This document shows positions 8,577 to 64,000 of a DNA stretch of 64,000 nt, one piece after another. Position numbers and translations under genes: made by a program. Each line of letters opens with the position of its first letter. Within the stretch, counting starts at the first letter, position 1. The notes beneath the pieces are model-generated. The model was given only the letters and a program-made list of their open reading frames with translations, was not told where the DNA came from and made no database searches. Origin of the DNA: Candidatus Saccharimonadota bacterium. Lineage in GTDB: Bacteria; Patescibacteriota; Saccharimonadia; Saccharimonadales; JACDBH01. Where the stretch lies: NCBI GenBank assembly GCA_028289135.1, contig JAQGGW010000008.1, positions 34,385 through 98,384 on the forward strand, in the 5' to 3' direction.

Positions 8577-8600
8577 ACTCCCTAGTATACTTGTTATTGG

Positions 8601-10037: not shown

Positions 10038-10039
10038 AA

Positions 10040-35942: not shown

Positions 35943-35995
35943 CAGATGTCTCCTTAATGTATCCACTATTCTAACAGATATCGTATAGTTATAAT

Positions 35996-42518: not shown

Positions 42519-42557
42519 GCTCTTGCCGATGCGCCAACTCTTCACTACCCTTATAAG

Positions 42558-43616: not shown

Positions 43617-44288
43617 CTAGCCAGCCGGTGCGCCGTCTCCCAAACTAGACGGGGTTAAGAAATGATAATTCTCCCCCGTCAGTGAATGAAGCATAAGTTT
43701 AGACTGTAATTCTTTTAATGCCGCATCTTGGGCGGAAGTGTCGTTAAGAGTAATAATAAAACTGTCGTCACTACTTACGTAGTCGATAACGTAAGTATCG
43801 TGGTTGGCCGGGAGGGTCCCAATATATTGGTTACGGATGCTGTTTGAAGGAAGTAAAGTATCGAGGTTCGCACCTGTAGACTCGTTTAAGATAGCTGTTT
43901 TAATATGGTTATTTTTTAGCAAAGTTGCCGTAACCACTATTTTGTCTGACGATTTAGCAAAAGTGCCGCTTAGTGTCAGGGTGTTTCCCTTCTTACTTGG
44001 CTTGCCGCCAACATCAAACTCAACCGTTGGATGCTTGGCGGGGTTGTAGGCGTTAAAATTTTTACGTGCAAAGAAGGCGATGTCATCCCGCAACAGGCTA
44101 TCTGCCCGCGTGCCAAACGGCGAATACGTGTCGTTCTTGTATATAAGAAACGCTCCCGAAGTCGGGGAGACATACTCGTCGCCATTAGCAATGTCGGCTG
44201 GCTTGTGCGAACGAAGGCCTGCGATTAACAGAATCACGATACCGAGAATGAGGACGGCACTAATAATAATTCGTCGCCTACTCATCAT
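43617..44288 (-). CDS. hypothetical N-terminally membrane-anchored protein (last gene of the T4SS-like cluster)
   Basis: Start moved to MMSRRRIIISAVLILGIVILLIAGL (ATGATGA overlap with the upstream stop). Single TM helix plus a ~190-aa beta-rich domain. No family. Confidence 0.5.
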   Translation of the reverse strand: MMSRRRIIISAVLILGIVILLIAGLRSHKPADIANGDEYVSPTSGAFLIYKNDTYSPFGTRADSLLRDDIAFFARKNFNAYNPAKHPTVEFDVGGKPSKKGNTLTLSGTFAKSSDKIVVTATLLKNNHIKTAILNESTGANLDTLLPSNSIRNQYIGTLPANHDTYVIDYVSSDDSFIITLNDTSAQDAALKELQSKLMLHSLTGENYHFLTPSSLGDGAPAG

Positions 44289-46375: not shown

Positions 46376-46376
46376 A

Positions 46377-46946
46377 TTAATCCCCTGCCACATCTGTTAA
46401 AAATGTAACTAAGTCTTTTGGAGCGTTCTTGTAAGTGCTCTTTGAGGTATCAAAAAGGCCGTCTGGATTAGTAAGAACCCACGAAGCCTTCTCGTAGTCG
46501 TACTGTAGTGCGTAGGATAAGCTATTGCCTTCTGTGCCATCGACTATCGCGCCAATCCAACCGCCATCAAACTGCCGGGCGGAACTAATTCCGCTTTCAT
46601 CTTTAAGCCCTAATGTTTTTTGAACGACGGTGCGGGCACTATCCCCCGCCGAAACCGCAATAATTACTTTTCCGCCAAGCAGCGGTTTAATACTTAGGCT
46701 TGTTTTTACTGCCTTAATTCCTGGCCCGCTTACCAATACCGGATAGGTGCCCGTTTTGCCATATGTGAAAGTTCGTACGCCCAAGTCCTTGGTAGTAATA
46801 CGCGTATTATCTATGTAGACATAAGTTGTTGTCGGATCAAAACTGCCTGTTAAAATCACGGTAACGCGAGGCTTAATAAGGCCTTTAACACCCAGAGCAA
46901 GTACTATAAATATGACAATAATAACAATGAGGCGTATGTATTTCAT
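46377..46946 (-). CDS. hypothetical N-terminally membrane-anchored protein
   Basis: 189 aa starting MKYIRLIVIIVIFIVLALGV (anchor), followed by a beta-rich domain. It is packed tightly between two hydrolase genes. Confidence 0.5.
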   Translation of the reverse strand: MKYIRLIVIIVIFIVLALGVKGLIKPRVTVILTGSFDPTTTYVYIDNTRITTKDLGVRTFTYGKTGTYPVLVSGPGIKAVKTSLSIKPLLGGKVIIAVSAGDSARTVVQKTLGLKDESGISSARQFDGGWIGAIVDGTEGNSLSYALQYDYEKASWVLTNPDGLFDTSKSTYKNAPKDLVTFLTDVAGD

Positions 46947-46948
46947 TG

Positions 46949-49900: not shown

Positions 49901-50788
49901 CGCAGCGTTATCTAGCTTTCCACTTTTTAATTTCGCAATCGTATCGGTAGTCAATCCACTCGATTCAGGATCAAGCTTACTGATCTCCTCCCCATTAAAA
50001 GTGAGTTTTACTGGTCTAAGCGTTGTCGTGCCGTCTGCCGCTCTAATGCTCCCAGCACTAAATGCAATGCCGGTATTCTTCTGCAAATCTCTTTCAAAAC
50101 TACCGGTTCTAAGTGTCCTATACCAGTCACGGATTGGGCTATCGGTATCGACCCTATCGCCTTTAAATAGCATAGTGTCAGAAAAAGATCCGTCAGGATT
50201 TTGTATCTCTGTAAGCCGCATTTTTAAATATGCCTTAAAATATGCATCCGACCGGCCAGAAAAGCTGGCATTAAACCTAGAAAAAGTCTTAACATCAATA
50301 TTTTGCAGAATGTGATCTAACTTAAAAACTGCTAAAAAATTACCAAAAGACGCTATAAAGCCAATACTAAGTGTCGTAAGGCCAATACCCGCTCCAATAA
50401 GCAGCTTGTTGCGGCCGGATGATTTCCCCTTTGTCCCAGCGCTGGCCTTGATTTTGCTCTTTGCTTCTTTATAAAATCCTTCGCCTTCAGAATCCTTATC
50501 TCCATCTTCAGAATTCTTGCTACCTCCATTGCCGGCATCCTCTTCTCTAGCTTTTAAAAACCCAGCGCGTACCTGATCTTTTACGTCATCGGTGTCTGCC
50601 TGATCCCTCTCCTGATCACGTTCACGCAGACCTCTGCGTTTTGTTGTCTCTTCGTCTTCGTCGCCGTCCTCATCTGCTTTTCTGTCACGGTCCATGCTTT
50701 TTCGGGAACCATTATACGAATCGCCTGGCTGCTCCCGGAGAGCATTATCTTCTTGGGCTTCAGGACTCTGGTCATCATACACAGCCAT
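46949..50788 (-). CDS. 1279-aa membrane protein with acidic disordered N-terminus and C-terminal M14 zinc-carboxypeptidase domain
   Basis: TM helix LLIGAGIGLTTLSIGFIASFGNFLAVF after a D/E/K-rich ~130 aa. The C-terminal ~230 aa carry M14 motifs IHGTENGG (HxxE), DLNRN, AIYHD and ILIELSDD. The central ~850 aa are unassigned. Confidence 0.65.
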   Translation of the reverse strand: MAVYDDQSPEAQEDNALREQPGDSYNGSRKSMDRDRKADEDGDEDEETTKRRGLRERDQERDQADTDDVKDQVRAGFLKAREEDAGNGGSKNSEDGDKDSEGEGFYKEAKSKIKASAGTKGKSSGRNKLLIGAGIGLTTLSIGFIASFGNFLAVFKLDHILQNIDVKTFSRFNASFSGRSDAYFKAYLKMRLTEIQNPDGSFSDTMLFKGDRVDTDSPIRDWYRTLRTGSFERDLQKNTGIAFSAGSIRAADGTTTLRPVKLTFNGEEISKLDPESSGLTTDTIAKLKSGKLDNAALQDLNKLGEKADSIVTKDIFENSKSARKAVKEVVKDETHFYNVLKRRHIRKDIENKTGITKWKLFETTRSKITAKKVELQKKILNKILPDNKAGQYIGCFLGSGPCNFNGDQNSPANQRGVAASGEPDPANKAQDDPAGIKDDGEPQPAVDANGNPILDAKGNPVPASAVDDTAELAGDVAKVADGVATSQITDEAATEASNEGVTLVEKVVTDEVEEDAAAGSNPVSTFSKVWRWLKRIAKISNTIKNGTLAKIVRNARLAQLAAIYATYSMARDQGKSGQLSADEFGNLMGTLNDVGQSEGWMNLSNPTAGNSVSAAALTAETNVNKVAYCKMTLKQQKANKIHYFCGNPNESRAADFTKTYQDSAICALICPIATVVNTIKDNPVSNFIVSIGDFAASIAGDVFNALHITDAFKAILNATGIGKNIGKVVVYVMTKAMAFLGAGPMYDGSPDSGAANFLVAGSAAQAEASTRGSGGVISTPATLAYTNNLAAAYTKEHATNESLFDKYASLSNTSSLFSTMLFSVTNFNISNGLNDFLGSLSIIPKTLASVANGNTYAATSDFNPAAWAGIDTYDIPPACQTLDPLDSNYLVDAVGVVAGSPQTSKAQSVIDAIRPNLTYANERDSTQFWKLVYDEIGKDDSQEEIAGAIYNCAIFDQRVMSGLGYTSGYTNDGGLNDGASVNTPATPPATTPTGPTDTGPTATGLNGFLVPSGGLATPVTVLTQGSPHADWSKAPELGKDAQGKSVTDSGTIGTNSAGQPIKVYIRAAKDTANIKTIIIGGGIHGTENGGGLIAWDLLYNEPTLPSNVRVIAIPEINGYGIDNAARKNKNNVDLNRNEDYNWGGGTPESCSESNISCMFYKGSSVGSEPETKALDSFLLSIGKVSLFAIYHDNLNYVAPVGGTSVDIGNAYAASVGMHGQDMTAKGQTKTVSQHGSLDAWFNKQTGSPSILIELSDDQSAGVIKQHANAIMQLLTSGKI

Positions 50789-50792
50789 AAAA

Positions 50793-52712
50793 TTACATTC
50801 CTGGGCTTAAGCGGTTACTAAGATCAATCGTCCCCTGTTGGTTAAAGTCACCCTGTTCAATCGCCGCCACCTGCGCCGGATTCGTTGTAATCAAACTAGT
50901 TTCGGTTGCGCTGGCAATAATCTGGATATGCACGTGGTTTTGGCCGGCAAAGAAAAGCCCTTGGCCAACCGGGAACTGGCTCAAACGCTTCTTTTCTTCG
51001 CTTGTGAGCTTAAAGACATCCGCCAAAACATCCACGGCCGAAGGAGACTGCTTGAGGAGCAATTGCATCGATGCGTTAGCAACAATTGCCCGGCCCATGC
51101 GGGAGCCCATAAAGTCTTCAACGTCCTGGCTAATAGTTGTAATACCCAGGTTATATTTGCGGGCGCGCTTGGCCAAAGAAAAGATAAAGTTAGCCGAATC
51201 TTCGTACTTCATAAGCTGCCAGGCTTCATCAACGATCAAAATGCGCTTTTTCTTGTCGCTCTTGGTCTTGTTCCAGATGTAGTTGAGCACAATGTACATA
51301 GCCACAGGGCGTAATTCATCCTCGAGATCGCGGACATTAAATACCACCATTGGGTTGTTAATGTTGATGTTGCTCTGCTGGCTGAATATGCCCGCAAACG
51401 TACCGCTGGTGTATTTGCGCAGGCGCTGAGCCAATTGCGGACCGGTACCGCCCATGTGAAGCAAGGTGTCATAGAGCTCGGTAATAGTTGGCGGCGGAGA
51501 CTGGTGTGTAAGCGGATCGTTAGTAATACCAGCGCGAGCATATGTTTCGATCAAGGCCGCATCCAGGTCCGACTCCTCGACAGGTGTTAGTGCGGGCTGG
51601 ATAATACCCTGGGCTCCGGAGGCCTGCGAAGCCATCTGCGCCTGCGCTCCGCCCATCATAAGCCGCAGTAGGCCATGCAGAGTAATGAGGTTACTGCGAA
51701 GCGCGTTGTCGGCCTCTTCGGCGTCCACGACTTGCGGCAGGTCAAACGGGTTAATCCGCGTATTAGAACTTAAACTTAGGCGTACATAGGCTCCGCCAAC
51801 CGCGTCACACATCCGCTGGTATTCGTTTTCTGGGTCAATAATAAATATCTCGGTCCCAAACATCAACGAACGCAGTGCTTCAAGCTTTACAGCAAAACTC
51901 TTGCCAGCACCAGACTTCGCAAACACCACCGAGTTGCCGTTTTCCAGACTAAACCTGTCAAACAAAACCAGGCCGGAGTTATGCATGTTAATGCCGTACA
52001 AAATGCCTGTGTCCTGGCTAAGATCCGCGGAAGTAAATGGAAATGAAGTCGAAAGCGCGCCGGTGTTCATGTTGCGGCGGATCTGCAGCTGGTCGACAAA
52101 CTGCGGCAATGTGCTGTTTAGCCCCTGTTCTTGCTGGGCGCTGGCGGGTTTGGAATAAATCAACTGCTGGCCAAGCATCGACTCCACCTTGTGGCTGACA
52201 AATTCCAGCTCGTCCTGTGATTCGCCATAAATTGTAAAATACAGCCCAAAACGGAAGAAACGCTCTTCGCCCACCTGCAGCTTGTCGCGCATTTCCTCGG
52301 CGTCGATGATGCTGGCCTGCTTGCCCGGGTCACGCACCCTGCCCTTTTCGTTGTCAATCTGGATCCCGGCTTCTAGCTGAGACACCTTTTTACGAAGGTT
52401 TTCGAGCACCACCTGGCTTTCAACCGGATAAATAAACATACTGAGATCGATCACTTCGTCCAGGTTAACCATACCGCTCAACCAGCCGGTAAAAATCTGC
52501 CGCGGGTAGCCATACACATAAAAAGTCCGGGCGTAGCGGGTGCCAATCCTAAAAAACCCGCTCTGGAATTCAATGGAGCTTGGCGCGATAAAATCACGTA
52601 GCGCGGTAATACCTTTTTGAAAAGCGCTGCTGACCTCTTGCTCTTCTTGCATGCGCTGGGCTTGGGCAAGCGCTACCGGGTCGGTCATATCCTTTTTTTT
52701 GCCAAACGCCAT
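50793..52712 (-). CDS. virB4: VirB4/TrbE-family type IV secretion ATPase
   Basis: 639 aa with Walker A VFAKSGAGKSF, Walker B RILIVDEAWQL, and TTISQDVEDF. The N-terminal domain ...FIAPSSIEFQSGFFRIGTRYARTFYVYGYP is typical of monoderm VirB4. AAGGAG lies upstream. Confidence 0.85.
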   Translation of the reverse strand: MAFGKKKDMTDPVALAQAQRMQEEQEVSSAFQKGITALRDFIAPSSIEFQSGFFRIGTRYARTFYVYGYPRQIFTGWLSGMVNLDEVIDLSMFIYPVESQVVLENLRKKVSQLEAGIQIDNEKGRVRDPGKQASIIDAEEMRDKLQVGEERFFRFGLYFTIYGESQDELEFVSHKVESMLGQQLIYSKPASAQQEQGLNSTLPQFVDQLQIRRNMNTGALSTSFPFTSADLSQDTGILYGINMHNSGLVLFDRFSLENGNSVVFAKSGAGKSFAVKLEALRSLMFGTEIFIIDPENEYQRMCDAVGGAYVRLSLSSNTRINPFDLPQVVDAEEADNALRSNLITLHGLLRLMMGGAQAQMASQASGAQGIIQPALTPVEESDLDAALIETYARAGITNDPLTHQSPPPTITELYDTLLHMGGTGPQLAQRLRKYTSGTFAGIFSQQSNININNPMVVFNVRDLEDELRPVAMYIVLNYIWNKTKSDKKKRILIVDEAWQLMKYEDSANFIFSLAKRARKYNLGITTISQDVEDFMGSRMGRAIVANASMQLLLKQSPSAVDVLADVFKLTSEEKKRLSQFPVGQGLFFAGQNHVHIQIIASATETSLITTNPAQVAAIEQGDFNQQGTIDLSNRLSPGM

Positions 52713-52734
52713 CAGGTTTTACTCCTTAAATTCA

Positions 52735-53751
52735 TCATGCCGGCAGCTCCTTCTCAAGCTCTGGCTGCGGCGCAAAACCAGCGCCCTTGGTAATTACAGG
52801 CGCGCTTAAATCATTAAAGTTCTTCAGCTTTTGGCGGGTAGCAGTGTCGGGGTTATAGGCGTCATAATAAAGTTCAATCAACTCCTGGGTATCTAGCGGC
52901 AGCCCCTGGACGCCGCACTGCAAAAGCCCGCCCAATGTGGCCTGCACGCGGTTACGCAGCTCGGTTTTGGCGGCTTCCAGGTCAGCCTCATTAATGGTAA
53001 CGTGGACTTCTTTTTTAGAAAAAGACCCTAAGAAATTCGTAACAAAGTTCTTGCTGGCTTCAACTGCCTTCTGGCCGTCAATAACAGGGATAAACGGTAC
53101 CACAACATAAAACTTCTTGTCCATAATGCTGGTCTGCGTGGCCAGGTCGCTCATAAACCCGATGTAGTCTTCCATGAGGAGCGCCAAGAGCATGTTGTCG
53201 TGCTCACTTCGGATTTTATCGAGCTTCTCAATATAAGGCCGCAAATCAACCTTCTGTGAACGGGTAAAGATCTGGATCGGGAAATATAGCGAGTTCAAAA
53301 AGCCTTGGTAGCTATACTCAACCGCTTCACGCTCCTGCGGGCTCATGAGGTCAAAGTTAATGCTTTTAACCATAATCACCGAGCGGAAAGAGCCGTCCTG
53401 CATAATCACAATGCCGTCGCGAATTTCGGCAATCTGCAAAGAGTTCTGGGTGCTGTTGGGGTTGGACTTCGGCGCGGCTGGGCCAGATACGCCCTGTGGT
53501 CCGGCTTGTCCCGGCTGGGCAATCTGCGGGCCATAAGCTTGGGCGTTTTGCGGGTTATACCCCTGCACTCCCGCCTGGAAAGATGGCGCAAACTGGGTCG
53601 CGGCGGCACCGCCTAGATTAGCCGGCTGGATAAAAGGTGTTGGTCCAGCAACAGCTTGGTTGGGGTTATAGTCAGGTGGCCGGGCAGGACCAGCAGAGAC
53701 TGGCACCGGTATATTCGGCAATTGGTTCGGTTGTATACTATTTGGATTCAT
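52735..53751 (-). CDS. hypothetical T4SS-associated protein: Pro/Gln/Gly-rich N-terminus + domain resembling a VirB4 N-terminal domain without ATPase
   Basis: 338 aa. The first ~95 aa are low complexity. Then IAEIRDGIVIMQDGSFRSVIMVKSINFDLMSPQEREAVEYSYQGFLNSL...ELIELYYDAYNP parallels the N-terminal half of the adjacent VirB4. There are no Walker motifs. Confidence 0.5.
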   Translation of the reverse strand: MNPNSIQPNQLPNIPVPVSAGPARPPDYNPNQAVAGPTPFIQPANLGGAAATQFAPSFQAGVQGYNPQNAQAYGPQIAQPGQAGPQGVSGPAAPKSNPNSTQNSLQIAEIRDGIVIMQDGSFRSVIMVKSINFDLMSPQEREAVEYSYQGFLNSLYFPIQIFTRSQKVDLRPYIEKLDKIRSEHDNMLLALLMEDYIGFMSDLATQTSIMDKKFYVVVPFIPVIDGQKAVEASKNFVTNFLGSFSKKEVHVTINEADLEAAKTELRNRVQATLGGLLQCGVQGLPLDTQELIELYYDAYNPDTATRQKLKNFNDLSAPVITKGAGFAPQPELEKELPA

Positions 53752-53801
53752 TATTACCGTTTTCCACCCTCAGAAATTCCCTCAAGATAAACCATTAAAC
53801 G

Positions 53802-55004
53802 TTAATGCAGCGATATCACCACTTCGTCATCCGCTTCGCTAATACGCTGGGCTTGGCGGGCGATCGTTGCCACGTTTAAATCGTCATTATTGGCAAGATT
53901 AAGTATAGCAGGATTAGAGGTAGTTCCGCCAGTTGGCTGGCCAGTCTGATAAGCGTTTTGAACAGGTGTAGCTGGCGGGTACGCCACCCGGGGTAAAATG
54001 CTTGTGTCAACTGCTGGCTGGGCTGCTTGAGGCGCCGTGACCGGGCTAGGCGTCGCCGGAGCCGCTGCAGGTGTGGGTTGCTGGTGGCTAAGCGGCTGCA
54101 GGGTCTTAATATGAGAATTAACCCCTTGCTTTTCCTTGGCTTTCTCGGCCTCAATTTTGGCAATCAACGCCTTCTCGTCGGCTGTTGCCTCAACGATGGC
54201 CGTATCGGCTGAGCCCGGAGCCACCACTTTCGTATTCTGAAAGGTCGAAAGGTTTTCTGGAACGTCCGGTGCCGCGCCGTTTTGCCCATTCAAAAACCAA
54301 TAATCAGCCGGCGGCGTTGCTTGTGCTGCCGGCGCTGCCCGCCCCTGTACAATCTGCCGCGCCAACTGTTGCTGCTGCGCCGCAGAAGCCTGCACCATTT
54401 GGTCCAAATGCTGGGCCGTCAGGTTGTTGCTGGCATCCATAATATCATCTTCCGCCTTAACATCCGTAACCGGCTCGCTTATCAAGGTGCTAGGCGCCAC
54501 AAGCCTGTCGGTGCCGTCGCTAGTGTTTAAATATCCTGGCTGGGCAAACAGGTTAACATCCACGTTTTTAATAGCCCACCCGCGGCTATCCAGCGTGCTA
54601 GCTAGTGCCGTCAACCGGCTTTCTACCTCTGTTTGGTCGAGCCCGTTAGTAAAAACTTTTATTAGTTTTTTGGGCACCGTAATAGTCACCAGCTGGCTGA
54701 GCCCATCTTGGTTCCAAACCCGTACATGCGGCTTTATGAGGAAGCGTATCCGCGCCAAAAGCCAAATATCATTCGGCTGGTCGCGGCTAATCGGCGCCGC
54801 CAAAAATCCAAAAACAATCATTGGCAGCAAAAGCACGATAACAAACGGCCAGCGTACCACGCTCAGCGCCGTTGTTGTAGCAAGCTTAAACTCAATAAAC
54901 CCAATCCCTATTGTAATAATGGCAAAAATAAACTGCTTGAGCGTCAACGGCCCAAGAAGCTTGTCTTCTGCCTCAATATCCTGCAAAACCTTATACGTCG
55001 CCAT
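53802..55004 (-). CDS. PrgI-family (VirB3-like) membrane protein with long Ala/Pro/Gln-rich C-terminal extension
   Basis: MATYKVLQDIEAEDKLLGPLTLKQFIFAIITIGIGFI plus a second TM helix matches the PrgI-family N-terminus common in monoderm/CPR T4SS loci. About 250 extra residues are largely low complexity. Confidence 0.6.
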   Translation of the reverse strand: MATYKVLQDIEAEDKLLGPLTLKQFIFAIITIGIGFIEFKLATTTALSVVRWPFVIVLLLPMIVFGFLAAPISRDQPNDIWLLARIRFLIKPHVRVWNQDGLSQLVTITVPKKLIKVFTNGLDQTEVESRLTALASTLDSRGWAIKNVDVNLFAQPGYLNTSDGTDRLVAPSTLISEPVTDVKAEDDIMDASNNLTAQHLDQMVQASAAQQQQLARQIVQGRAAPAAQATPPADYWFLNGQNGAAPDVPENLSTFQNTKVVAPGSADTAIVEATADEKALIAKIEAEKAKEKQGVNSHIKTLQPLSHQQPTPAAAPATPSPVTAPQAAQPAVDTSILPRVAYPPATPVQNAYQTGQPTGGTTSNPAILNLANNDDLNVATIARQAQRISEADDEVVISLH

Positions 55005-55080
55005 GTCTACCTAAGTATACAGGAAACAGGTTATGGCTGGAACTGGTCGAATGCGTAAGTGACTATCAAGAATTTAAGAA

Positions 55081-56610
55081 CTAATATCCAAGTATCGCCT
55101 GGGCGATCGCCGCCCTGTCAGGACTGGTTGGATCTAAATCCGCTACCATATCAACAACTGTCTGCAAAAGCTCAAGGTTTTCACCGCGGTCGATATATTC
55201 TTTAATACTTTTGGCGAGTGTAATACGCTCCAGTACGGGCAGCTGTGCGCTAATCTGAGCTACTGGAGCATATTTATTAACGGCCGCCGCCGCTTCTTGT
55301 ATTGCCGCCACCGGTTGTGCTTCGGTCGGTTGGGCTGGCGTAGGAGCGTGCCGACCTCTACCAATCAGACCCTGACTGTGCAGCGTAGGCCTGATCCGCT
55401 TTAGGAGTAAATGGTTAACTGCGTCATTGCTAAATGCAGCTTCCAATAAACCCGACTCCATATCGTGTAAATTGCCCTGAACCTCAGTATTAACGGATTC
55501 TAAATCCAAGATTGGTTCAGGATTCTGCTGGACTAATATCTGTACCATAATATCTGCAACTTCATTGTCTGAGTACTTATGACGCGTTTCAAGCAACCCC
55601 TCAATCTTTTGCAATAAAGCCGAAGTGCCTCCACCGTTCTGTGTATTGTCGGCCTCATCTTTGCCGATCTTCTTAACATCCGGCGCAGTACCTGAGTTTA
55701 CGATAAATCGTCCAAGCCGTCCTACGCTCTGATTTGCCGGCTTGCTTAGTTCCGTCAGTATCCCTTGCAAGCCCTTGTCTTCCTTGTCGCCCGGTTTTCC
55801 GTAATTAATTTCCTGGACAAACCTAGCAACTGCTTGCTGTTTGATAGCGGTCGTAATCTTGCCGTCAATTACAATACTGTGAGCGTCAAGGAGATCCTTA
55901 ATCTTGGCGTCTAGCCCCTCGGCACCTTCTTGGTAGTGTGTGCGTAAATGTTCAGTTAATACGTCCTTGATTTCAGTAAGTCGCAGGGTTTTTTCGGCTT
56001 CACTTTCTAAGGCAAAATTAGCACTATCAACTTCATCGGCCTTTGCTTCAATAACGCCCGCATTTGCAGCCATAAACTCTTCGCCGGCCTGTGCACTATC
56101 TTTTTTAAACTGCTCAGTCTTTTCGTTCTTCGCCTTGTCTAATACAGAAGTTTTGTAATCCGCCTGTGCTTTTTTAGTTGCATCCCCAAGCTCAACTTCG
56201 TCTATCTCTCCTGTGGCGACGTTTTTGAATAATAAGTCCAGGATGTCACTATACGTTAGCTTTATATTCTTTATTACTTTTTCTTGGTCTTTACTCAGCT
56301 TAACTCCGCGCAGGCTTTTATCGAGCTGCTTGTTGAGCTCAGCAGAGCTTATGACGGGCCTGGCGTCTGTCATAACTTGCCCGGGTGCTGCAACTCTATC
56401 TCCCGCCACTTCAGCGGGAGCGGTCTGGTCTTCCGAAGCTTCTGGAGCTGCAAGCGCTAAAGTCTCGGGGGCTGGAGGCTCAGTAATAAAAGTCGGCGCT
56501 GGCAGAGCCTCGGGGATTATGGGGGGCAGCCCGGAGCCTTCAGCAAGAGGAGCTGGTATGCCGTTTGCGGGTAATTCTGCGTGTGGGTTGGCTTCGTTTG
56601 AATTTGTCAT
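55081..56610 (-). CDS. hypothetical soluble protein (Pro/Ala-rich N-terminus, helical body)
   Basis: 509 aa with no TM helix or signal peptide and no recognisable family. It is the first gene after an internal terminator. Confidence 0.5.
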   Translation of the reverse strand: MTNSNEANPHAELPANGIPAPLAEGSGLPPIIPEALPAPTFITEPPAPETLALAAPEASEDQTAPAEVAGDRVAAPGQVMTDARPVISSAELNKQLDKSLRGVKLSKDQEKVIKNIKLTYSDILDLLFKNVATGEIDEVELGDATKKAQADYKTSVLDKAKNEKTEQFKKDSAQAGEEFMAANAGVIEAKADEVDSANFALESEAEKTLRLTEIKDVLTEHLRTHYQEGAEGLDAKIKDLLDAHSIVIDGKITTAIKQQAVARFVQEINYGKPGDKEDKGLQGILTELSKPANQSVGRLGRFIVNSGTAPDVKKIGKDEADNTQNGGGTSALLQKIEGLLETRHKYSDNEVADIMVQILVQQNPEPILDLESVNTEVQGNLHDMESGLLEAAFSNDAVNHLLLKRIRPTLHSQGLIGRGRHAPTPAQPTEAQPVAAIQEAAAAVNKYAPVAQISAQLPVLERITLAKSIKEYIDRGENLELLQTVVDMVADLDPTSPDRAAIAQAILGY

Positions 56611-56700
56611 AACTAATCACTATATTAGCATAGTTTTGCTAATTAAGCAATAGCATTATGATTCAATCTTACCTTCTTTTATTCTTCTGAACTTAAAAAA

Positions 56701-56725
56701 AGACAGCCCATAGACCAGGCTGTCT
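56701..56725 (-). terminator. intrinsic terminator inside the T4SS-like cluster
   Basis: On the minus strand AGACAGCC-TGGTCTATG-GGCTGTCT (a perfect 8-bp stem) is followed directly by TTTTTTT. It lies 21 nt after the stop of 56747..58333. Confidence 0.7.
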
Positions 56726-56746
56726 TACTGATTTAATACAGAAAGT

Positions 56747-58333
56747 TTAACGCTCCAAAGCACGCTTCATCTTGGCGGCTTTTTCTAGTAAGTTAATCAT
56801 CCATCCATCCGCGACCTTAGTGCCCTTAACGGATGCTACGTATGCTTCGATTTCCGCTGGAGTTTTAGCAAAATAATCATTAAAGTCTTTTAGTACTCCA
56901 GGTTCCGGCGAAGTACCATAGAACTTTTGTTTGGCCTTTTCAAAATCTTCTTTAAGTCGATCTGCCTCGGTATTGATCTTTATTCGGGTCTCTACGCGCT
57001 CCGCACCGCGTTCAACATTTTGCTGGATGCGCACTACAGCTGCAGAAGCAAGCAGCGCCGTCTTAAGTTCATGAGAAATGTTTGCAGTGTTTGCAAGTCT
57101 TTCAAGAGCAATTGCATCACCCATTTCAAAAGGTTTCCCCGCTTCAGTAAATATTCTTTTGTCATGCCTGCTTGGCTTGCCGTTAACGTAGCTGGTAATA
57201 GCCGTTTTAAGGTCGGCGTTCAACGTCTCTAGTTCGATATGGCGTTTTAGCTGGCCAACGGCATTGACGGCAAGCTCCATTTTTTGTGTAACTAACGGAC
57301 GGCCTGTTGCTGCAGCGTGGCGGTCCGCAATGTTAACATCAGGAAGAGTCACCAAGTTATCAAAAATAATGAGGTCTGCTGGAGTTGCATCTGCCTGAAA
57401 ACTATCAAGTGCCTCATTTGCTGTTTTTTGGGCTGCTTCCAACGGCGTTGGCTTGGGGTGTGCCGGATCATGGTCATGCCCGTGCTCGTCGTGCCCATGC
57501 CCATGCCCGCCTTGGTTCCATGTCCATGGCTTGTAAGCTACTTTGTGATGGCCGTGGTTTTGCACAATGGCATGGTACTTAGTACCCTTTTCCATTGCTT
57601 TTTCAAATCTCGCGAGTGCGCTTCGAACAAGTTTTGCATCTTGCGAGTTAGGGCCAGTTGCTAAATACATCCGCAATTTTTCGGGGTGGGTCAGCTGGTT
57701 AAACGAACGAAGTTCGGGGTTTGTAGGATCTGCAGCGACTAGACGGCCAGTGCTGTCATACATTGGCCGTGTTTCGTCCTTTATGCCTAATCCCTCTGGG
57801 TTCACATAGCTCCTTGTAATTAGCCAAAGTATCCGGGCCTCCGACAAGCTGGCATCTCGTACATTAGCCGCATGATCCATATGCTCGGCAGTTTTACGGG
57901 AAGCGTCGGTTGGGTCAGCATGAAAACGTACTACGTTCGGCCTAGTGAACACTGGTCGTCTTACCCTATAGTCGATTATATTTCCTGATTGGCCGTATAT
58001 TGGTTCGGTCGACACTTCGTAAGTTATATTACCCCTTTCATCAGTGCCTGAAGGCCTCATCAATACAGGCTGGCCTTTGGGATCCTTTGCAACAATCTCA
58101 TTAGGACCGTGCGGAGAGTCGCTTGGAACCCTAGCTCCAGACTGTGGAACTCCCTCGGTGTATATCTTTAAGAGGTTCTCTCCAGCCAGCTTGGATCTAT
58201 CACCCTCGGTTGCTGTTGGGTCTTTTTTTATCTCTAACCCATCATAATGAGTGAACCCATCTTGTAGAATGATGTTTGGTAGGAGATTGCCGTCTGCGTC
58301 ACTGATTGAACTGTTTATGTTTTTTTCTGCCAT
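56747..58333 (-). CDS. hypothetical soluble protein with His-rich metal-binding-like tract
   Basis: 528 aa with no TM helix or signal peptide. It contains NHGHHKVAYKPWTWNQGGHGHGHDEHGHDHDPAHP. No family recognised. Confidence 0.5.
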   Translation of the reverse strand: MAEKNINSSISDADGNLLPNIILQDGFTHYDGLEIKKDPTATEGDRSKLAGENLLKIYTEGVPQSGARVPSDSPHGPNEIVAKDPKGQPVLMRPSGTDERGNITYEVSTEPIYGQSGNIIDYRVRRPVFTRPNVVRFHADPTDASRKTAEHMDHAANVRDASLSEARILWLITRSYVNPEGLGIKDETRPMYDSTGRLVAADPTNPELRSFNQLTHPEKLRMYLATGPNSQDAKLVRSALARFEKAMEKGTKYHAIVQNHGHHKVAYKPWTWNQGGHGHGHDEHGHDHDPAHPKPTPLEAAQKTANEALDSFQADATPADLIIFDNLVTLPDVNIADRHAAATGRPLVTQKMELAVNAVGQLKRHIELETLNADLKTAITSYVNGKPSRHDKRIFTEAGKPFEMGDAIALERLANTANISHELKTALLASAAVVRIQQNVERGAERVETRIKINTEADRLKEDFEKAKQKFYGTSPEPGVLKDFNDYFAKTPAEIEAYVASVKGTKVADGWMINLLEKAAKMKRALER

Positions 58334-58385
58334 AACTGAATTGTAGCATATTATTGCTTAAAAAGCAACCCCCTACGTACGCCCG

Positions 58386-61300
58386 TTAAAGAGCTGGGGT
58401 AACAGGTGGCAGATCTCCTGGAGCAGCAGGGCGGCCACCCTGCTCGTAGTCCGTTCCATACTGACGGGAGACTTCCCTGACTTCCTTACTGTTGCGGGCA
58501 AGTTCTGCCATTCGTGCTTTAGTTATTGTAGAGTCCTTAAGCACTCGTCGGCCAGTAGGACGAGTATGAGGTGAACCATCAGGAGTAGGCCCTGGGATGA
58601 CCTCGGTCTCTTCTGTCCATATGCTTGGCCCCAACATTTCTAGCTGAGCAGGGCTTAGTTTAGTAAGGTCTTGTACTTCCCTACCAAACCCTTTAGCCAG
58701 CATTTCTCTTTTCTGGCTGGTTGTTGCGCCTTCAACTCCTTCGTAATATTTAACAAGTGAATCTGCCAAGCTTCGTGAATCGCCGGTTGTAACAGCATCT
58801 TCTACGTCTTTATTGACAAAGTTAACAAACTTTTGGGTGGCTGGGTCTTTGACGTTAGGGCCCATCCACTGCGAACCGTGCGACTGGGCAAAGGATCGCC
58901 TAGCTACGGCCTCGGCTAAGATGCTTGGATCTTCTCTGACGTCTAGCCGGGGAGCATCAGCTGCTAACCTGTTACCCGCAATATCCGAAGCGAACATTTC
59001 TCCAGTTGTTTCGTCATAGCCCATCAAAGTACCGGTTCGCTCGGACTCCGCAATTGCCTCTGCGGAACCATGGCTTAACAGGCCTTCGTCCGGCCGGCCG
59101 GCGTTAGTGGAAACAGAACGGATACGACCGTTCAAATATGCCCTTAGTCCAGCATCCCCATGACCTACTTCGGCTGTAAGGTGTCTTGCTGCTGCCATAG
59201 AGCTGAGCCTGGTCTGCTCTTTGCCATCTTTATCTATATACTTGTAACCATACATAGTTCCGCCGGCGGCAGCTTTGTCAAATGCAGCCAGCTTCATCCC
59301 GGCCATACCGTATTCCTTGACCAGGTTATCGTAATCAATTCCGTTATTTTTTAAGGATTCGCCATTCCGTCCTGTGTCCCCAAGCATTTTTAAGAACTCT
59401 TCACGGTTGGTCGCAATTGACGCTGCGTACATAAAGTTATCATCCCCAAGCACCCTTTGTCCTATCTCGCTTTTATCCTGTAGCATTCTTTGGGATTGTG
59501 AAAGGGCATGACCCATATGGTTAACCCCAAGTTCATTTTTCCATTTTCGTGGATCAGCACCAAGCTTATTAATATTAGATGCCTTGCCTAATGCGCTGTT
59601 AACCCTATTCTTAAAAGCGCTGCTTCCAGGCCTCTTGAAGAACTGGTCGTTTTGCAGGCGATGGAATTTGGCTTGCCGGCCCTTCTTCTGACGGTCGAAC
59701 AAGCCCTTGCTCTTGTCGTTGGCCATGCCGGAGATGGTTGCAAAGGCTCCGCCAGCGAACTTGAAGGCAGCCGGGATGAATACAAGCGGCAATATATATG
59801 CAGCAATCTTAAACAAGAAGCTTGCTATGCCCCCAGCGTTGGTGGTGTCGATAATATAGGCAAAGACGTGTCCTACGGATATAAGAATCATCATAAGCGG
59901 ATATACAAGCAGTAGCCTGCTAAAGCTGTCCCACCAAGCTTTCCAAAGCTTATTATTCATAGGGAATATCCACGGTAATATGGCTAATGGCGACACGAGC
60001 AGCAACGCTACTAGAAAAATTTGCCGCAGCACAATGACACCGTATGTTACCGCTAGGAATAGTAATATGGTGCCCAGGAAGAACCACACGATTAGTATCA
60101 GTGCCGCAATAGCAGGCAGTAATAAGATAACATTGTTAACAAAGGACTCGACTCCGCCGTCGAATACGCAGGATAAAGTAATCTCGGTTGGACAACGGCC
60201 TGTGGAGCTTACGAACGGCTGTTCTATAATGCCCTTCACTCCTCCTCCGACGACGTTTGTTAAGTTAATGACAAACAAGCATAAATACCATGACAGCGCG
60301 ATAAAGATGACGCCAACTACCATGCGTGGCAAAGCCTTTTTAACGGTATATGCATCAAATGGCCCAACGTTGATTGCGGTGCCAATAACCATTACGAGCA
60401 TGATGGGTATCAAAATTAAATAAGCCAGGTCACGCATGCGAACCCAGGTTACTTTTAGCTGGCGCGTGCTTTCCGAGGTGCCACTTGTGCAACCCGTTGT
60501 ATTATCCTTACAATTACTTGCATTGCCGCTCACTATGTCTGAAGCCAGCTGGTTTTGGATCAAGTCGTCAACCGCTTTCAAGCCTTTAGAGATTGAGTCG
60601 ATAACCGGACAAGCTATCCAACCTATAAAGCCGTTAAGTGATTCGCATGAACTTGCCCCGCCGCCTATATCGCCATTCCCTGGTAGCTGATTGGCTGGAT
60701 TATTTGGATCCACATTGCCCCCAGGGTTAGTCGCCGTATCATCATCAAAGGCAAGGATAATAGTACTAGTTCCGTTATCCCTCACCTCTTCAACATATGT
60801 ACAAGAACCTTTTGGTGACGCGTTGTATTTATACAAGATATTCGGAATGGCGGAGGATTCGTATGCGTAAACCACATCATTATTACAGGCATCAGATTTA
60901 TTGCCGAAGACAACAGCCGCGCTCCCTTCCAATACGTCTCCGCCTGTTTTTTGGAGCGTAGTACCCGTAATTTTAGCGAGTTTCCCAATGCCAAAGTGTG
61001 AACCTTTAACCTCGTTAATGCCGCCATCGGCAGTGTAGTAAAAGCTAAAAGCAGCCCGGTGATAACTCGTATCGTTGCCCGCGCTATTTATATACTCTTC
61101 ATTTAGTACATCTTCGTAATTCAGCCCCCAAAGCGGAATACCCGGAATGGCTGGTAGTGCCGCCAAACTTGATAATGCCCCTGAGGATTTCGTATCATCA
61201 GTAAGCCCAGATATGAGCGTAATACACGTACTGCTTGCGCTCGGAAGCGATAAAGCGCTGGTTGGAATCTTAATTTCAAATTTCCTGTCCCTATTCTCGA

Positions 61301-62303
61301 TAATTTTATAGATACTACTTTCTGTGGAGCTATTAATAGCACCCTCTATACTTAGCGAAGAACTACACGATCCTGTCGTATCGGTAAATTGGTTGTCGGT
61401 ATCATCGGTGTAATTATCAAAAAGATGGCGCGTAATATCAAAAGGCACGGTCGAGCCGTTAACGGTAAGGGTGCCTGTTATCTTTAAGTCAATTTGGCTT
61501 CTTGAGTAGAACTTAAAGGTAAAAGCACTGAGGCTCGTAACATTGTCGGCGGCCGGAGGCGTAGGGCTCGGAGCCCCAGGGCTTCCACCGCTGCTGATTA
61601 CGGTGAGCTTTAAGATATCGCGTAATGCTTTGACCTTGTCCCCACCCGATATAGTCTGTGGCTTGGGTGTGATATTACCGTCGCCGGTGGCTGTCGTACC
61701 GCTGTTGTGTCCTGGTTTGGCAATTACCATGTCGGCAATTGCGCCAGCCGCATTAACGGTTACCGATCCGTGATCAGCCCTGCTGCCACGGTCATCGCTT
61801 ATAAACCTCCAATCTGAAGTTCCTTGCCCATTCCTGATATAGTCACCCGGCGGGAACGCCTGTCCGCTCCTGCTGCCGCACCCACCGCCACCTACATTTA
61901 TTTGAACAAGGTTTGTAATGCCTTGCGCTATCAAAACCTTTTTTATATCAGAAACTTTGAGATAATCAGCGCTTGACGCGTCAGCGTGGGCAATATAGAT
62001 ACTCCCGTAAAGGGTATTTGAGGTTGCCACTCTAGTCGCTCCTCCGTTACGAGACCCTCCATTATTAAGGATAGTTGCTAGATCAATTGCGGCGTCAGAG
62101 AGGCCGCTGACAGCTGGGTTGACTATCAATAAGTCGCAGCTGCCTGCAATTATCTTGCCGTTGCTGTCTAGGGTAAGCGGTGTTGCAAAGACTTTTTGGT
62201 AAGAGATAAGCATAACAAAAGATAAGGCTGCGATAGTCCAGAGAATAGAACTTCCCTTCCGCAAGCTTCTTGTTCGTGTCTTAATGCTATTGCGTAATTT
62301 CAT
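58386..62303 (-). CDS. 1305-aa polytopic membrane protein: large extracytoplasmic N-domain + VirB6/TrbL-like multi-TM core + ~430-aa cytoplasmic C-domain
   Basis: N-terminal anchor SILWTIAALSFVMLISY, then ~600 aa Gly/Ser/Thr-rich with scattered Cys. About 7-8 TM helices follow (LAYLILIPIMLVMVIG ... IAAYILPLVFIPAAFKFAGG), in the position and topology expected for VirB6-like channel proteins. The C-terminal domain is unassigned. Confidence 0.6.
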   Translation of the reverse strand: MKLRNSIKTRTRSLRKGSSILWTIAALSFVMLISYQKVFATPLTLDSNGKIIAGSCDLLIVNPAVSGLSDAAIDLATILNNGGSRNGGATRVATSNTLYGSIYIAHADASSADYLKVSDIKKVLIAQGITNLVQINVGGGGCGSRSGQAFPPGDYIRNGQGTSDWRFISDDRGSRADHGSVTVNAAGAIADMVIAKPGHNSGTTATGDGNITPKPQTISGGDKVKALRDILKLTVISSGGSPGAPSPTPPAADNVTSLSAFTFKFYSRSQIDLKITGTLTVNGSTVPFDITRHLFDNYTDDTDNQFTDTTGSCSSSLSIEGAINSSTESSIYKIIENRDRKFEIKIPTSALSLPSASSTCITLISGLTDDTKSSGALSSLAALPAIPGIPLWGLNYEDVLNEEYINSAGNDTSYHRAAFSFYYTADGGINEVKGSHFGIGKLAKITGTTLQKTGGDVLEGSAAVVFGNKSDACNNDVVYAYESSAIPNILYKYNASPKGSCTYVEEVRDNGTSTIILAFDDDTATNPGGNVDPNNPANQLPGNGDIGGGASSCESLNGFIGWIACPVIDSISKGLKAVDDLIQNQLASDIVSGNASNCKDNTTGCTSGTSESTRQLKVTWVRMRDLAYLILIPIMLVMVIGTAINVGPFDAYTVKKALPRMVVGVIFIALSWYLCLFVINLTNVVGGGVKGIIEQPFVSSTGRCPTEITLSCVFDGGVESFVNNVILLLPAIAALILIVWFFLGTILLFLAVTYGVIVLRQIFLVALLLVSPLAILPWIFPMNNKLWKAWWDSFSRLLLVYPLMMILISVGHVFAYIIDTTNAGGIASFLFKIAAYILPLVFIPAAFKFAGGAFATISGMANDKSKGLFDRQKKGRQAKFHRLQNDQFFKRPGSSAFKNRVNSALGKASNINKLGADPRKWKNELGVNHMGHALSQSQRMLQDKSEIGQRVLGDDNFMYAASIATNREEFLKMLGDTGRNGESLKNNGIDYDNLVKEYGMAGMKLAAFDKAAAGGTMYGYKYIDKDGKEQTRLSSMAAARHLTAEVGHGDAGLRAYLNGRIRSVSTNAGRPDEGLLSHGSAEAIAESERTGTLMGYDETTGEMFASDIAGNRLAADAPRLDVREDPSILAEAVARRSFAQSHGSQWMGPNVKDPATQKFVNFVNKDVEDAVTTGDSRSLADSLVKYYEGVEGATTSQKREMLAKGFGREVQDLTKLSPAQLEMLGPSIWTEETEVIPGPTPDGSPHTRPTGRRVLKDSTITKARMAELARNSKEVREVSRQYGTDYEQGGRPAAPGDLPPVTPAL

Positions 62304-62733
62304 AGTAGCTCACTAGTGATTTCTTATTACTCTCTATTACGTAGACGGTCATTACATAGCTTGGATTTACGGCCTTATCCTCTAGGTGGATTATTTGAAC
62401 CCCAAATTTAGTTTCTTGTGATTTGTAGATAAACTTACCCGTTCCTATTAAGGCGTGAAGCCGTGCCGATTCATTTTTAAACGTACTGAGTGGGGTATTT
62501 TTCTGAAAAGAAGTGGTAGTTAGCGCATAGGCCGCATCGGGCTTCTGGTCTTTTATAAAGCTGCCAGTAAACTTTTTGGCTACTTGTTGCTGGGGCGTCC
62601 CGCTACTTTTTACGCTAAAGGCTAGCAGCAAAATGAATAATAAAGCTACAAACGCTCCTATTATAAGCAAAGCTTTGCGAGACAAGCCTCTTCTGGGCGT
62701 TCGAACACCACCATACTGTGCTTCAGGGTTCAT
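62287..62733 (-). CDS. small N-terminally anchored protein (first gene of the cluster; VirB8-like candidate by topology only)
   Basis: 148 aa with the anchor ALLIIGAFVALLFILLLAF plus a ~100-aa helix-then-sheet domain. A 17-nt overlap with the next gene. Confidence 0.5.
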   Translation of the reverse strand: MNPEAQYGGVRTPRRGLSRKALLIIGAFVALLFILLLAFSVKSSGTPQQQVAKKFTGSFIKDQKPDAAYALTTTSFQKNTPLSTFKNESARLHALIGTGKFIYKSQETKFGVQIIHLEDKAVNPSYVMTVYVIESNKKSLVSYYEITQ

Positions 62734-62799: not shown

Positions 62800-62829
62800 T
62801 TGACACTTTTTCTATTCATGAAGTAAAAT
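62800..62829 (+). promoter_or_regulatory. candidate promoter for the pilin-like genes (near-leaderless)
   Basis: TTGACA (62800-62805), an 18-nt spacer, TAAAAT (62824-62829), then 9 nt to the ATG at 62839. There is no SD. Confidence 0.4.
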
Positions 62830-62838
62830 GCTTACAGT

Positions 62839-63525
62839 ATGTTATATAAACAGATACAAAAAATAACCAAAATCAAAATAATTATAGGAATGGCCGTAGT
62901 TTTATGGTTACTTATTACACCTTCTTTTGCTTATGCGGCTGCTACTTGTCCTGATGGATCAGCTGCGGCTCCTGGAACCGCTTGTTCGGATGGCACATAT
63001 CCTGTAGGCGATCCAACCCTACCGATACGTTGTCCTGGTGGCCCGGCCGGTCCCGAGCCTGCCGCGTATAAAACTAACTGCCCTACTCGTCCAGGACGAT
63101 CGGCTTGCACCTACACGGAAGCAACCATGAAATGTATTAGTAGTTCTGGGACTGATGTTAGTCATGGTGATGCTTATGCCGCCAACGGTGGACCAGTCGT
63201 TTCTAGTGATACCGACCCCGCATCCAACGTTTCAATCTCTGAGCCAAACGCTAAGACCAACGACTGTACTGGCGCGGCCATTAACCGGGATAATTGCGGT
63301 ATTGTAAAGTATTTAGCGTTTTTTATTAATATACTTTCTGCGGTTGTTGGGATTGTGGTAACGGGCGTAATCATTTGGGGTGGTATTGAATACTCCACAT
63401 CTGGCGGCGACCCCGCTAAGGTGCAGGCCGCTAAAAAGAAAATTTATAATGGAGTATTCTCGCTCATAGCCTTTATCTTCACCTATGCATTCTTGCAGTA
63501 CATTATACCTGGAGGCGTTCTGTGA
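62839..63525 (+). CDS. T4SS pilin-like (TrbC/VirB2-type) protein with a long Cys-rich N-terminal extension
   Basis: Signal peptide ...ITPSFAYA. A ~125-aa Pro/Gly/Cys-rich segment (8 Cys) follows. The two-helix pilin core is YLAFFINILSAVVGIVVTGVIIWGGIEYSTSGGDPAKVQAAKKKIYNGVFSLIAFIF. Confidence 0.6.
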   Translation: MLYKQIQKITKIKIIIGMAVVLWLLITPSFAYAAATCPDGSAAAPGTACSDGTYPVGDPTLPIRCPGGPAGPEPAAYKTNCPTRPGRSACTYTEATMKCISSSGTDVSHGDAYAANGGPVVSSDTDPASNVSISEPNAKTNDCTGAAINRDNCGIVKYLAFFINILSAVVGIVVTGVIIWGGIEYSTSGGDPAKVQAAKKKIYNGVFSLIAFIFTYAFLQYIIPGGVL

Positions 63526-64000
63526 TTCTTATTAAAAAGTTTGCGGCAACGGGGGTCATATCTTTTTTCATGCTTCTAGTCGGAGCGTCGTCACTACCTA
63601 TGCATGCTAGTGCCGCTGTTGATCCGTTATGCGACAAATCCAGTTTCCTTTTAGGGCTGCCTACCTGGTATGAATATCTTGAGGTCGGCAAAGAGTTTGC
63701 GCCAGACGGGATAACAGTTGTCGATAAGTGTGCGGTTATAGGTCCAGCAAAGGAAGGATCGACGGATCTAGACTTAGCAAAAGTGATCCCACTCGTAGGG
63801 CTGGCGGTTCTCGAGATAATGCTTCGGATAGGCGGGCTCGCAGGCTTCTTCTTCGTAATTTACGGTGGTTTTAGATACATTACCTCTCAGGGCGAGCCAG
63901 ATAAAACCAAGCAAAGCCGCCAAACCATAACTAACGCACTTATTGGCATGGTCATTAGTATTATCGCCGCCGCCGCCGTATCATTTATTGCAAATACCCT
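63522..64000 (+). CDS. T4SS pilin-like protein (3'-truncated by the window end)
   Basis: Not in the ORF track. GTG at 63522 is preceded by GGAGG (63511-63515). Signal peptide MILIKKFAATGVISFFMLLVGASSLPMHASA, two Cys, then the core IPLVGLAVLEIMLRIGGLAGFFFVIYGGFRYITSQGEPDKTKQSRQTITNALIGMVISII, parallel to the previous gene. Confidence 0.65.
   Translation, partial: MILIKKFAATGVISFFMLLVGASSLPMHASAAVDPLCDKSSFLLGLPTWYEYLEVGKEFAPDGITVVDKCAVIGPAKEGSTDLDLAKVIPLVGLAVLEIMLRIGGLAGFFFVIYGGFRYITSQGEPDKTKQSRQTITNALIGMVISIIAAAAVSFIANT

Follow-up and report, generated by a model that had tools for sequence, protein, structure and literature searches.

The window analysed here is a 64,000-nucleotide (nt) stretch of the genome of a Candidatus Saccharimonadota bacterium (contig JAQGGW010000008.1, assembly GCA_028289135.1, positions 34,385 to 98,384). 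At its end lie two tandem open reading frames, ORF1 and ORF2 (62839-64000), each encoding an exported protein that terminates in a two-helix hairpin. We find that the two genes are probably slots 1 and 2, i.e. the first two positions, of an array of VirB2-like pilins belonging to the chromosomal, oriC-proximal type IV secretion system (T4SS) of Saccharibacteria, which are ultrasmall epibionts. The operon for the T4SS machinery, identified by Pfam matches and by a gene order equal to that of a related locus (L081), lies upstream of ORF1 and points away from it (50793..62733, - strand). Previous publications cover the protein family and its locus as well as the arrays and their essentiality, and the window mainly shows a known system cut by the window end.

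The T4SS of Patescibacteria, with loci near dnaA, was described by Quiñonero-Coronel et al. (2025), who found a VirB4 resembling that of mating pair formation class FATA (MPF-FATA), PrgI, VirB6 and PF18895 pilins in oriC-proximal loci, and recorded 441 arrays of 2-11 pilin genes (PMC12102498). The T4SS of strain TM7x, with its 'Sec-secreted array', had been described by McLean et al. (2020). In Southlakia epibionticum, transposon sequencing (Tn-seq) by Wang et al. (2023) returned calls of GD/ES/ES (growth-deficient or essential) for the six pilin genes SEML1_0014-0019, in a locus ordered as in the window (PMC10633639, Table S1). The Saccharibacteria T4SS resembles monoderm T4SSs and is essential for epibiotic growth in the one species tested. 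It is the first T4SS found essential for its bearer, and the pilin array is its least understood part.

ORF1 (62839-63525, + strand) encodes 228 amino acids (aa) and is recorded in full length at NCBI as JWO47_991, a 'hypothetical protein' of a Candidatus Saccharibacteria bacterium metagenome-assembled genome (MAG). The protein begins with a Sec signal peptide (aa 1-33; 62839..62937, + strand) that starts MLYKQIQK and has its predicted cleavage site between AYA and AAT. The n-, h- and c-regions are legible in the sequence, AlphaFold2 (AF2) models residues 2-26 as a helix, and the MLYKQIQK N-terminus is kept in homologues. An ectodomain module with six cysteines follows (aa 34-118; 62938..63192, + strand), delimited by a HMMER scan, an alignment (A4) and a hidden Markov model (HMM) of the module. 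It contains C37, C49, C65, C81, C90 and C99 and the motifs CPDG, CSDG, CPGG, CPTRPGR and CTY. A low-complexity linker rich in S, T, D, P and N then leads into a membrane-proximal Cys loop, NDC143…DNC153GIV (together aa 119-153; 63193..63297, + strand), which brings the Cys count to eight (residues 37, 49, 65, 81, 90, 99, 143 and 153). C143 and C153 are at least 90% conserved among slot-1 homologues. Across aa 34-154 (121 residues) the composition is dominated by A (18), P (14), G (14), T (13) and S (12). The pilin core (63286..63504, + strand) consists of a helix at aa 150-187, the loop GGDPAKVQAAKKK, a second helix at aa 192-222 and a conserved tail, FLQYIIPGG; GG..Y…K…N…FLQ..PGG is invariant in the cores of ORF1 homologues. 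AF2 assigns the core hairpin a predicted local distance difference test score (pLDDT) of 83-87 and the linker a pLDDT below 50.

Upstream of ORF1 there is a sigma-70-like promoter, TTGACA and TAAAAT separated by 18 nt (62800..62829, + strand), recognised from its consensus match alone (11/12 positions). Because the -10 hexamer ends 9 nt 5' of the ORF1 ATG and ORF1 has no Shine-Dalgarno sequence, the pilin operon mRNA is probably leaderless or nearly so. No conservation of the promoter sequence upstream of slot 1 was seen in relatives.

ORF2 (63522..64000, + strand) opens with a GTG that overlaps the ORF1 stop as GTGA, an arrangement that points to translational coupling of the two genes, and 159 of its 163 codons are inside the window. 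A GGAGG Shine-Dalgarno sequence (63511..63515, + strand) lies 6 nt 5' of the GTG, and the start is further supported by homologues, which begin MSxFKKF…. A preliminary description of this DNA had recognised the GTG start and the GGAGG, and rightly so. Its explanation that the gene had been missing from an ORF list on account of the GTG did not stand: the reading frame runs off the window end, and NCBI annotates the full-length 163-aa protein (JWO47_992, P0032 in our set; again a 'hypothetical protein' in a Candidatus Saccharibacteria MAG). ORF2 comprises a signal peptide (aa 1-31), an ectodomain of the form C37…LGLPTWYEYL…C70 with a small beta-hairpin, and two helices at aa 85-121 and 126-161 in the AF2 model, in which both the helical hairpin and the small ectodomain are confidently predicted (mean pLDDT 86.9). 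Its two Cys, already noted in the preliminary description, are residues 37 and 70. ORF2 is better conserved than ORF1, with 67-72% identity in the closest relatives.

Both proteins have the architecture of the PF18895 T4SS_pilin family, namely a cleavable Sec signal peptide legible in the sequence, two hydrophobic helices and a short loop of net positive charge, and they are encoded at a T4SS locus with VirB4, VirB3/PrgI and VirB6. The predicted mature topology is an extracellular N-terminus, two membrane helices joined by the positive loop, and an extracellular C-terminus. In a profile search ORF1 matched PF18895 with 30.7 bits over aa 164-221, above the gathering score of 26.6, and ORF2 ended just short of this score (values below). 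The ORF2 hairpin is homologous to that of ORF1 by profile-profile comparison with hhalign (probability 98.3%, E 2.6e-14; paralogue identity is low, ~25%), and ORF2 matches a core HMM of the pilin family at E 2e-35; on these two grounds ORF2 is placed in the PF18895 family. The two-helix core with a charged loop and the likeness to VirB2-type pilins proposed in the preliminary description are thereby upheld: both loop motifs it quoted are present, and AF2 returns both hairpins. Neither ORF matched PF04956 (TrbC/VirB2) at E<=0.1 (gathering score 27.9 bits). In the array of L081, slot 6 passes this threshold with 31.2 bits, and slots 5 and 7 reach 25.7 and 27.6 bits. The link of ORF1 and ORF2 to PF04956 is, by these scores, transitive only, via sister slots of the array. 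Matches to the Mbov_0395 pilin-like family NF045849 were weak (24.9 and 26.1 bits, cut-off 40).

A lipoprotein nature, named as a counter-case in the preliminary description, was considered for ORF1 and judged unlikely. By inspection there is no lipobox ([LVI][ASTVI][GAS]C); in the ORF1 sequence, …FAYAAATC, positions -3 and -1 are A and T. The end of the ORF2 signal peptide, …HASAAVDPLC, has no lipobox by inspection either. In homologues that carry the six-Cys module, the first Cys stands 5-9 residues past the AxA site.

To place the two genes we used 80 related loci from species-representative genomes, whose ORFs were searched with a pilin-core HMM. Sixty arrays had flanking sequence on both sides and were counted as complete. 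Six genes were present in 42 of these, five in 4, seven in 12 and eight in 1; the remaining one is a single stand-alone gene. The pair of slots 1 and 2 always precedes 3-6 further pilin genes in the relatives. Slot 1 encodes the longest and most Cys-rich product (median 189 aa, range 88-337; median 6 Cys), slot 2 has a median of 141 aa and 2 Cys, and slot 3 is short and free of Cys (98 aa, 0 Cys). Slots 4, 5 and 6 have medians of 134, 136 and 140 aa with 2 Cys each. Slot orthology was assessed across ~50 genomes by BLAST of the last 75 residues. The best cross-genome match lay in the same slot for slot 1 in 47/49 genomes and for slot 2 in 44/49. Scores within a slot across genomes were 64-97 bits (72-78 bits for slots 1 and 2), whereas slots 1 and 2 scored 32-50 bits against other slots of their own genome. 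The late slots are closer to each other (95 bits between slots 5 and 6); slots 5 and 6 also resemble TrbC most closely and are the best conserved of all, at 97 bits across genomes. Variation in array size from 5 to 8 reflects mostly extra copies of the slot-5/6 type. By core BLAST the window's ORF1 was assigned to slot 1 in 40/40 top matches and ORF2 to slot 2 in 39/40. These six slots are old paralogues that have differentiated and are non-redundant, rather than recent variable copies. Since each of them is essential in the one species tested, this slot conservation points to a multi-component assembly, either hetero-oligomeric or staged. An exact 51-mer scan of metagenome contigs gave no match to the window locus.

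Three loci depart from the regular arrangement. At L084 (1610-2266, - strand) a 218-aa protein contains two tandem pilin cores, seen as two PF18895 stretches, and is apparently a fusion of slots 2 and 3. At L023 (8459-10264, + strand) a stand-alone gene encodes a 601-aa protein in which ~520 aa of N-terminal sequence precede the pilin core; the same contig of MAG LH_M93 has a regular array of six genes (L012) ~56 kb away. At the start of the L052 array (7999-11733), the place of the single slot-1 gene is taken by three genes for long pilins of 308, 253 and 299 aa, with ~560-590 nt between them; one of the three pilins has an ectodomain with 12 Cys and also bears the slot-2 motif FVPTWYEYL.

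We next consider the ectodomain of slot 1, in which nearly all of the variability resides. In 66 slot-1 proteins, after crude removal of the signal peptide, the ectodomain measured a median of 84.5 aa (24-237) and contained 0-12 Cys (median 6). The preliminary description had correctly placed the Cys-rich region of ORF1, with its 8 Cys, as an exported ectodomain between signal peptide and pilin core. It had also called the 8-Cys extension unusual, which does not agree with the family, since 8 Cys occur in 12/66 slot-1 proteins. Because the Cys count is even in 92% of the 66 proteins, the slot-1 extension is very probably disulfide-bonded, as had been suggested. The single knot of eight Cys then envisaged gives way to two separate units: six Cys belong to the module and two to the membrane-proximal loop, NDC…DNCGIV, common to slot-1 pilins. 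Variation of the insert among related genomes had been anticipated, and it is pronounced. Between the window and L081 the slot-1 core is 84% identical and the ectodomain cannot be aligned, with eight ectodomain Cys in both.

A full HMMER scan with ORF1 residues 34-142 against 1.84 billion representative proteins recovered 12 proteins at E<=1e-3. They share a module of ~85 residues with six conserved Cys and the motifs GCPGG, GTxCPDG, LPxGCPG, CPARPGR, CTY and C. In alignment A4, 14 columns are invariant, among them five Cys, and the sixth Cys is at least 90% conserved. ORF1 aa 34-118 scores 103 bits against the module HMM, which was built with ORF1 included, and the region has no Pfam match. 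The eleven other carriers comprise eight slot-1-type pilins (200-241 aa), one 131-aa fragment and two VirB6-like proteins, P0153 of 873 aa and P0160 of 1172 aa. In these two the module immediately precedes the VirB6 membrane core, and each protein aligns with the window's VirB6-like protein (E 5e-33 and 2e-41, respectively). The T4SS loci of P0153 and P0160 (L083 and L084) are of the same design, and in both the resident slot-1 pilin lacks the module. Word-indexed and metagenome-locus searches with the module alignment, which are of limited sensitivity, returned almost nothing, fitting a rare module.

Applied to the window and the 80 related loci, the module HMM matched slot-1 proteins only in the window, L001, L002 and L003. 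The module was absent from 18/18 slot-1 proteins nearest to ORF1 in the core (68-87% identity), and module-bearing pilins have just 41-64% core identity to ORF1. This distribution indicates that the head domain is exchanged independently of the pilin core. The module region is high in GC (54.5%, compared to a window value of 44%), but this was rejected as evidence of horizontal transfer, as the Pro/Gly/Ala-rich composition explains the value. Three features are apparently undescribed in the Patescibacteria T4SS literature covered by a limited search: that the slots are strictly orthologous, that variability and disulfides are concentrated in slot 1, and that pilin and VirB6 have a module in common.

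Note that P0160 (L084, 3331-6849) also carries a C-terminal Peptidase_S74 domain at residues 1080-1128 (PF13884, 27.8 bits). Peptidase_S74 is an endosialidase intramolecular chaperone, a domain of the phage tail-fibre type.

By analogy to VirB2 and PrgF, the array could function as follows. The Sec system would insert the subunits into the membrane, from which they would be extracted and stacked on a platform formed by a VirB6 pentamer, giving rise to a tube. The loops would line the lumen of the tube and the N-terminal ectodomains would lie outside, with the slot-1 head exposed. Slots 5 and 6, being the most TrbC-like, would be the likeliest bulk subunits. Slot 1 would be a specialised minor pilin, probably of low copy number, with an exchangeable disulfide-bonded head, which in ORF1 would consist of the six-Cys 'CPARPGR' module, the flexible linker and the conserved Cys loop. 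The same head can alternatively be mounted on the extracellular N-terminus of VirB6. For Gram-positive T4SSs, the VirB2-like PrgF has been modelled as a pilus on a VirB6 pentamer (bioRxiv 10.64898/2025.12.18.695078).

The slot-1 head may be placed at the exposed distal end of the apparatus and there contact or recognise the envelope of the host cell, an assignment to which we give slightly less than even confidence. The tip-like decorated subunit suggested in the preliminary description is still a plausible candidate role for ORF1. It is favoured by the presence of the head on VirB6 and by its exchange between lineages in the manner of receptor-binding domains. VirB5-type tip adhesins and minor pilins have the role proposed here, that of a low-copy, exposed contact subunit placed first on VirB6. 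The likeness would be one of function only: VirB5 and ORF1 have no sequence or fold relationship, ORF1 being a VirB2 paralogue with an added head. A published result of cryo-electron tomography (cryoET) is compatible with this role: the Saccharibacterium Mycosynbacter amalyticus displays a tube or 'lance' ~9 nm wide and 61-70 nm long with a barbed tip, which the authors assign to no system (PMC11880426). It is a speculation, and as a whole an unlikely one, that slot-1 pilins form a VirB5-like tip or 'barb' of the T4SS tube, that this tube is the 9-nm lance or conduit seen between Mycosynbacter and Gordonia, and that the first pilin or VirB6 carries the head as an interchangeable cassette for host recognition, the CPARPGR module being one such cassette that helps to set the host. 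The head acts as a movable module shared with VirB6, and it provides a concrete candidate for the part that touches the host, as well as a starting point for testing what makes uncultured epibionts specific for their hosts.

Several observations weigh against the assignment of ORF1 and ORF2 to the first two slots of a pilin array with an exchangeable head. ORF2 scores 25.2 bits (window part) or 25.6 bits (full-length) against PF18895, 1 bit under the gathering score. Foldseek searches of both AF2 models against the PDB found only generic helical hairpins (best E ~1) and no significant pilin match, an archaeal conjugation pilus appearing at rank 34 with E 4.5; a profile of the ORF2 family had 0 matches among PDB sequences. 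These null results are expected and uninformative because a bare helical hairpin is a very small fold. The slots past 2 in the source genome lie beyond the window, and their presence is deduced from 59/60 complete arrays in relatives. A folded ORF1 head is suggested by conservation, as the AF2 model of the ectodomain is of low confidence (pLDDT 42-67, from a 31-sequence alignment that did not include module homologues). Among the window ORFs screened, which leave out those at ~20.6-31 kb, there was no thiol-oxidoreductase of the Dsb or VKOR type. In Patescibacteria, filaments built from these proteins have been neither observed nor purified. In addition, the shared-cassette idea is based on one module: when all long pilin ectodomains were compared by BLAST with every non-pilin ORF of the loci, the CPARPGR module was the only case of sharing between pilin and VirB6. 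The complementary placement of the module, on VirB6 or on slot 1, is drawn from two VirB6 cases. A module borne by VirB6 would moreover sit at the base of the pilus, and sharing alone is no argument for the tip.

The presence of the same module on VirB6, a fixed membrane component, also fits a different explanation, in which the proteins are membrane-retained channel or stalk parts of the T4SS rather than filament subunits, and the ORF1 head forms a wall-spanning or wall-binding collar like the ectodomain of VirB6. A T4SS pilus is indeed undemonstrated in Patescibacteria, and the authors of the TM7x cryoET study assigned no filament to the T4SS. However, the proteins are homologous to TrbC/VirB2, the homologous PrgF behaves as a lumen-lining pilus subunit in Gram-positive conjugation, and a 9-nm tube is seen in Mycosynbacter. 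We therefore regard this explanation as improbable.

Tandem amplification could also have produced interchangeable pilin variants, used one at a time for antigenic or host-range variation, as has been suggested for Patescibacteria arrays by analogy with the VirB2 paralogues of Bartonella and Anaplasma (PMC12102498). The low identity between paralogues, the hypervariable slot-1 ectodomain and the differences in array size, with mostly late-slot copies added, are in line with this proposal. Yet slot order, length and sequence are kept over the ~50 genomes, with orthologues of slots 1 and 2 more alike than paralogues, the variation is concentrated in one domain of one slot, and the six genes are each essential in Tn-seq and hence non-redundant. 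Fixed, orthologous and non-redundant slots argue against simple variation among interchangeable copies, and we consider such a role quite improbable.

The preliminary description had proposed a major/minor pair with a tip-like decorated subunit; as a self-contained unit, ORF2 would form the shaft and ORF1 the decorated tip. In favour of such a pair, the two genes are translationally coupled, and the better-conserved ORF2 stands beside an ORF1 with a variable head. Synteny largely refutes the proposal, because further pilin genes always follow in relatives, so that ORF1 and ORF2 appear as the opening of an array that numbers six genes in 42/60 cases. In addition, the greatest likeness to TrbC and the strongest conservation are found in slots 5 and 6 rather than slot 2, and each of the six genes is essential by itself in S. 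epibionticum. A self-contained pair is accordingly very unlikely; from the standpoint of annotation the two genes are ordinary members of a known T4SS pilin family, which look like a pair only because of where the window ends. That the proteins are Sec-exported substrates or toxin subunits secreted by the T4SS, as in the pertussis toxin analogy of McLean et al. (2020), is hardly credible: all members have signal peptides and flank T4SS genes, but every member ends in a two-transmembrane hairpin matching pilin families, no enzymatic domain is present, and the identity to the S1 subunit given by the original authors is just 11%.

The closest known counterpart of slots 1 and 2 is the array of S. 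epibionticum ML1 (SEML1_0014-0019) and TM7x, which belongs to the same PF18895 family. The order dnaA…VirB4, TraC-like, PrgI, VirB6 and divergent pilin array is common to ML1 and the window, with Hsp20 after the array in ML1 and L081, and ML1 shows the same slot pattern of a long slot 1, a third slot of ~100 aa and TrbC-like last slots. In the window, slot 1 encodes 228 aa with the six-Cys module, compared to 132 aa for SEML1_0014, and the window covers the first two genes only. The Gram-negative PF04956 pilins (such as Agrobacterium VirB2, RP4 TrbC and R388 TrwL) likewise have a signal peptide, two hydrophobic helices and a charged loop, and are encoded beside VirB3, VirB4 and VirB6; slots 5-7 of the sister array match PF04956. 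In contrast, ORF1 and ORF2 are unmatched, genes for VirB5, VirB7, VirB9 and VirB10 are absent nearby, and the organism has a single membrane. To our knowledge, canonical mature VirB2 is small and without a folded N-terminal domain. The systems of pCF10 PrgF(B2) and other VirB2-like proteins of Gram-positive conjugation, and of Mbov_0395 from Mycoplasma integrative and conjugative elements, share with the window a monoderm MPF-FATA-type T4SS and a small two-transmembrane, charged-loop protein near VirB6. They differ in having apparently one functional pilin each, in being conjugative, with relaxase and coupling protein, and in the absence of a Cys-rich ectodomain.

The T4SS operon itself follows the order of L081, the nearest relative on a long contig (444 kb, from JGI), with 62-92% identity between the encoded proteins. 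All of its genes are on the - strand. Nearest to ORF1 is a gene for a 148-aa protein with a single transmembrane segment (62287-62733), which overlaps the start of the gene for the VirB6-like protein (1305 aa; 58386-62303). It is followed by a 528-aa protein without a Pfam match (56747-58333), a 509-aa protein of unknown function, a PrgI/VirB3-like protein (53802-55004), a TraC/TrsD-like protein (52735-53751) and the VirB4 ATPase (50793-52712). The L081 orthologues carry PF19590 TrbL_3, PF12666 PrgI and PF26593 TraC-like, and the pilin array of L081 consists of seven genes followed by Hsp20. Past VirB4 come two large proteins, an M14 peptidase and a GDSL hydrolase, then recF, dnaN and dnaA (39741-43616), yidC and jag.

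The 148-aa protein has a 169-aa counterpart in L081. Because the two show merely 25% identity over just 48 residues, it is, by this comparison, another fast-evolving exported component of the T4SS locus. The 528-aa protein is 35% identical to a 392-aa protein of L081 and contains a His-rich run, HGHHKV…GGHGHGHDEHGHDHDPAH, which is possibly metal-binding. Of the two large genes between recF and virB4 (44285-50788, - strand), one encodes a protein of 1279 aa that ends in an M14 zinc carboxypeptidase domain, the other a GDSL hydrolase of 702 aa. By analogy to VirB1, these may be envelope-degrading accessory enzymes of the T4SS.

At a distance from the T4SS locus, the window contains a large surface-polysaccharide gene cluster at ~5800-37100. 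It includes two Wzy_C proteins, an initiating sugar transferase, many GT4 glycosyltransferases and a Wzm/Wzt ABC exporter, as well as a GDP-mannose 4,6-dehydratase fused to a Dabb domain (34590-35966).

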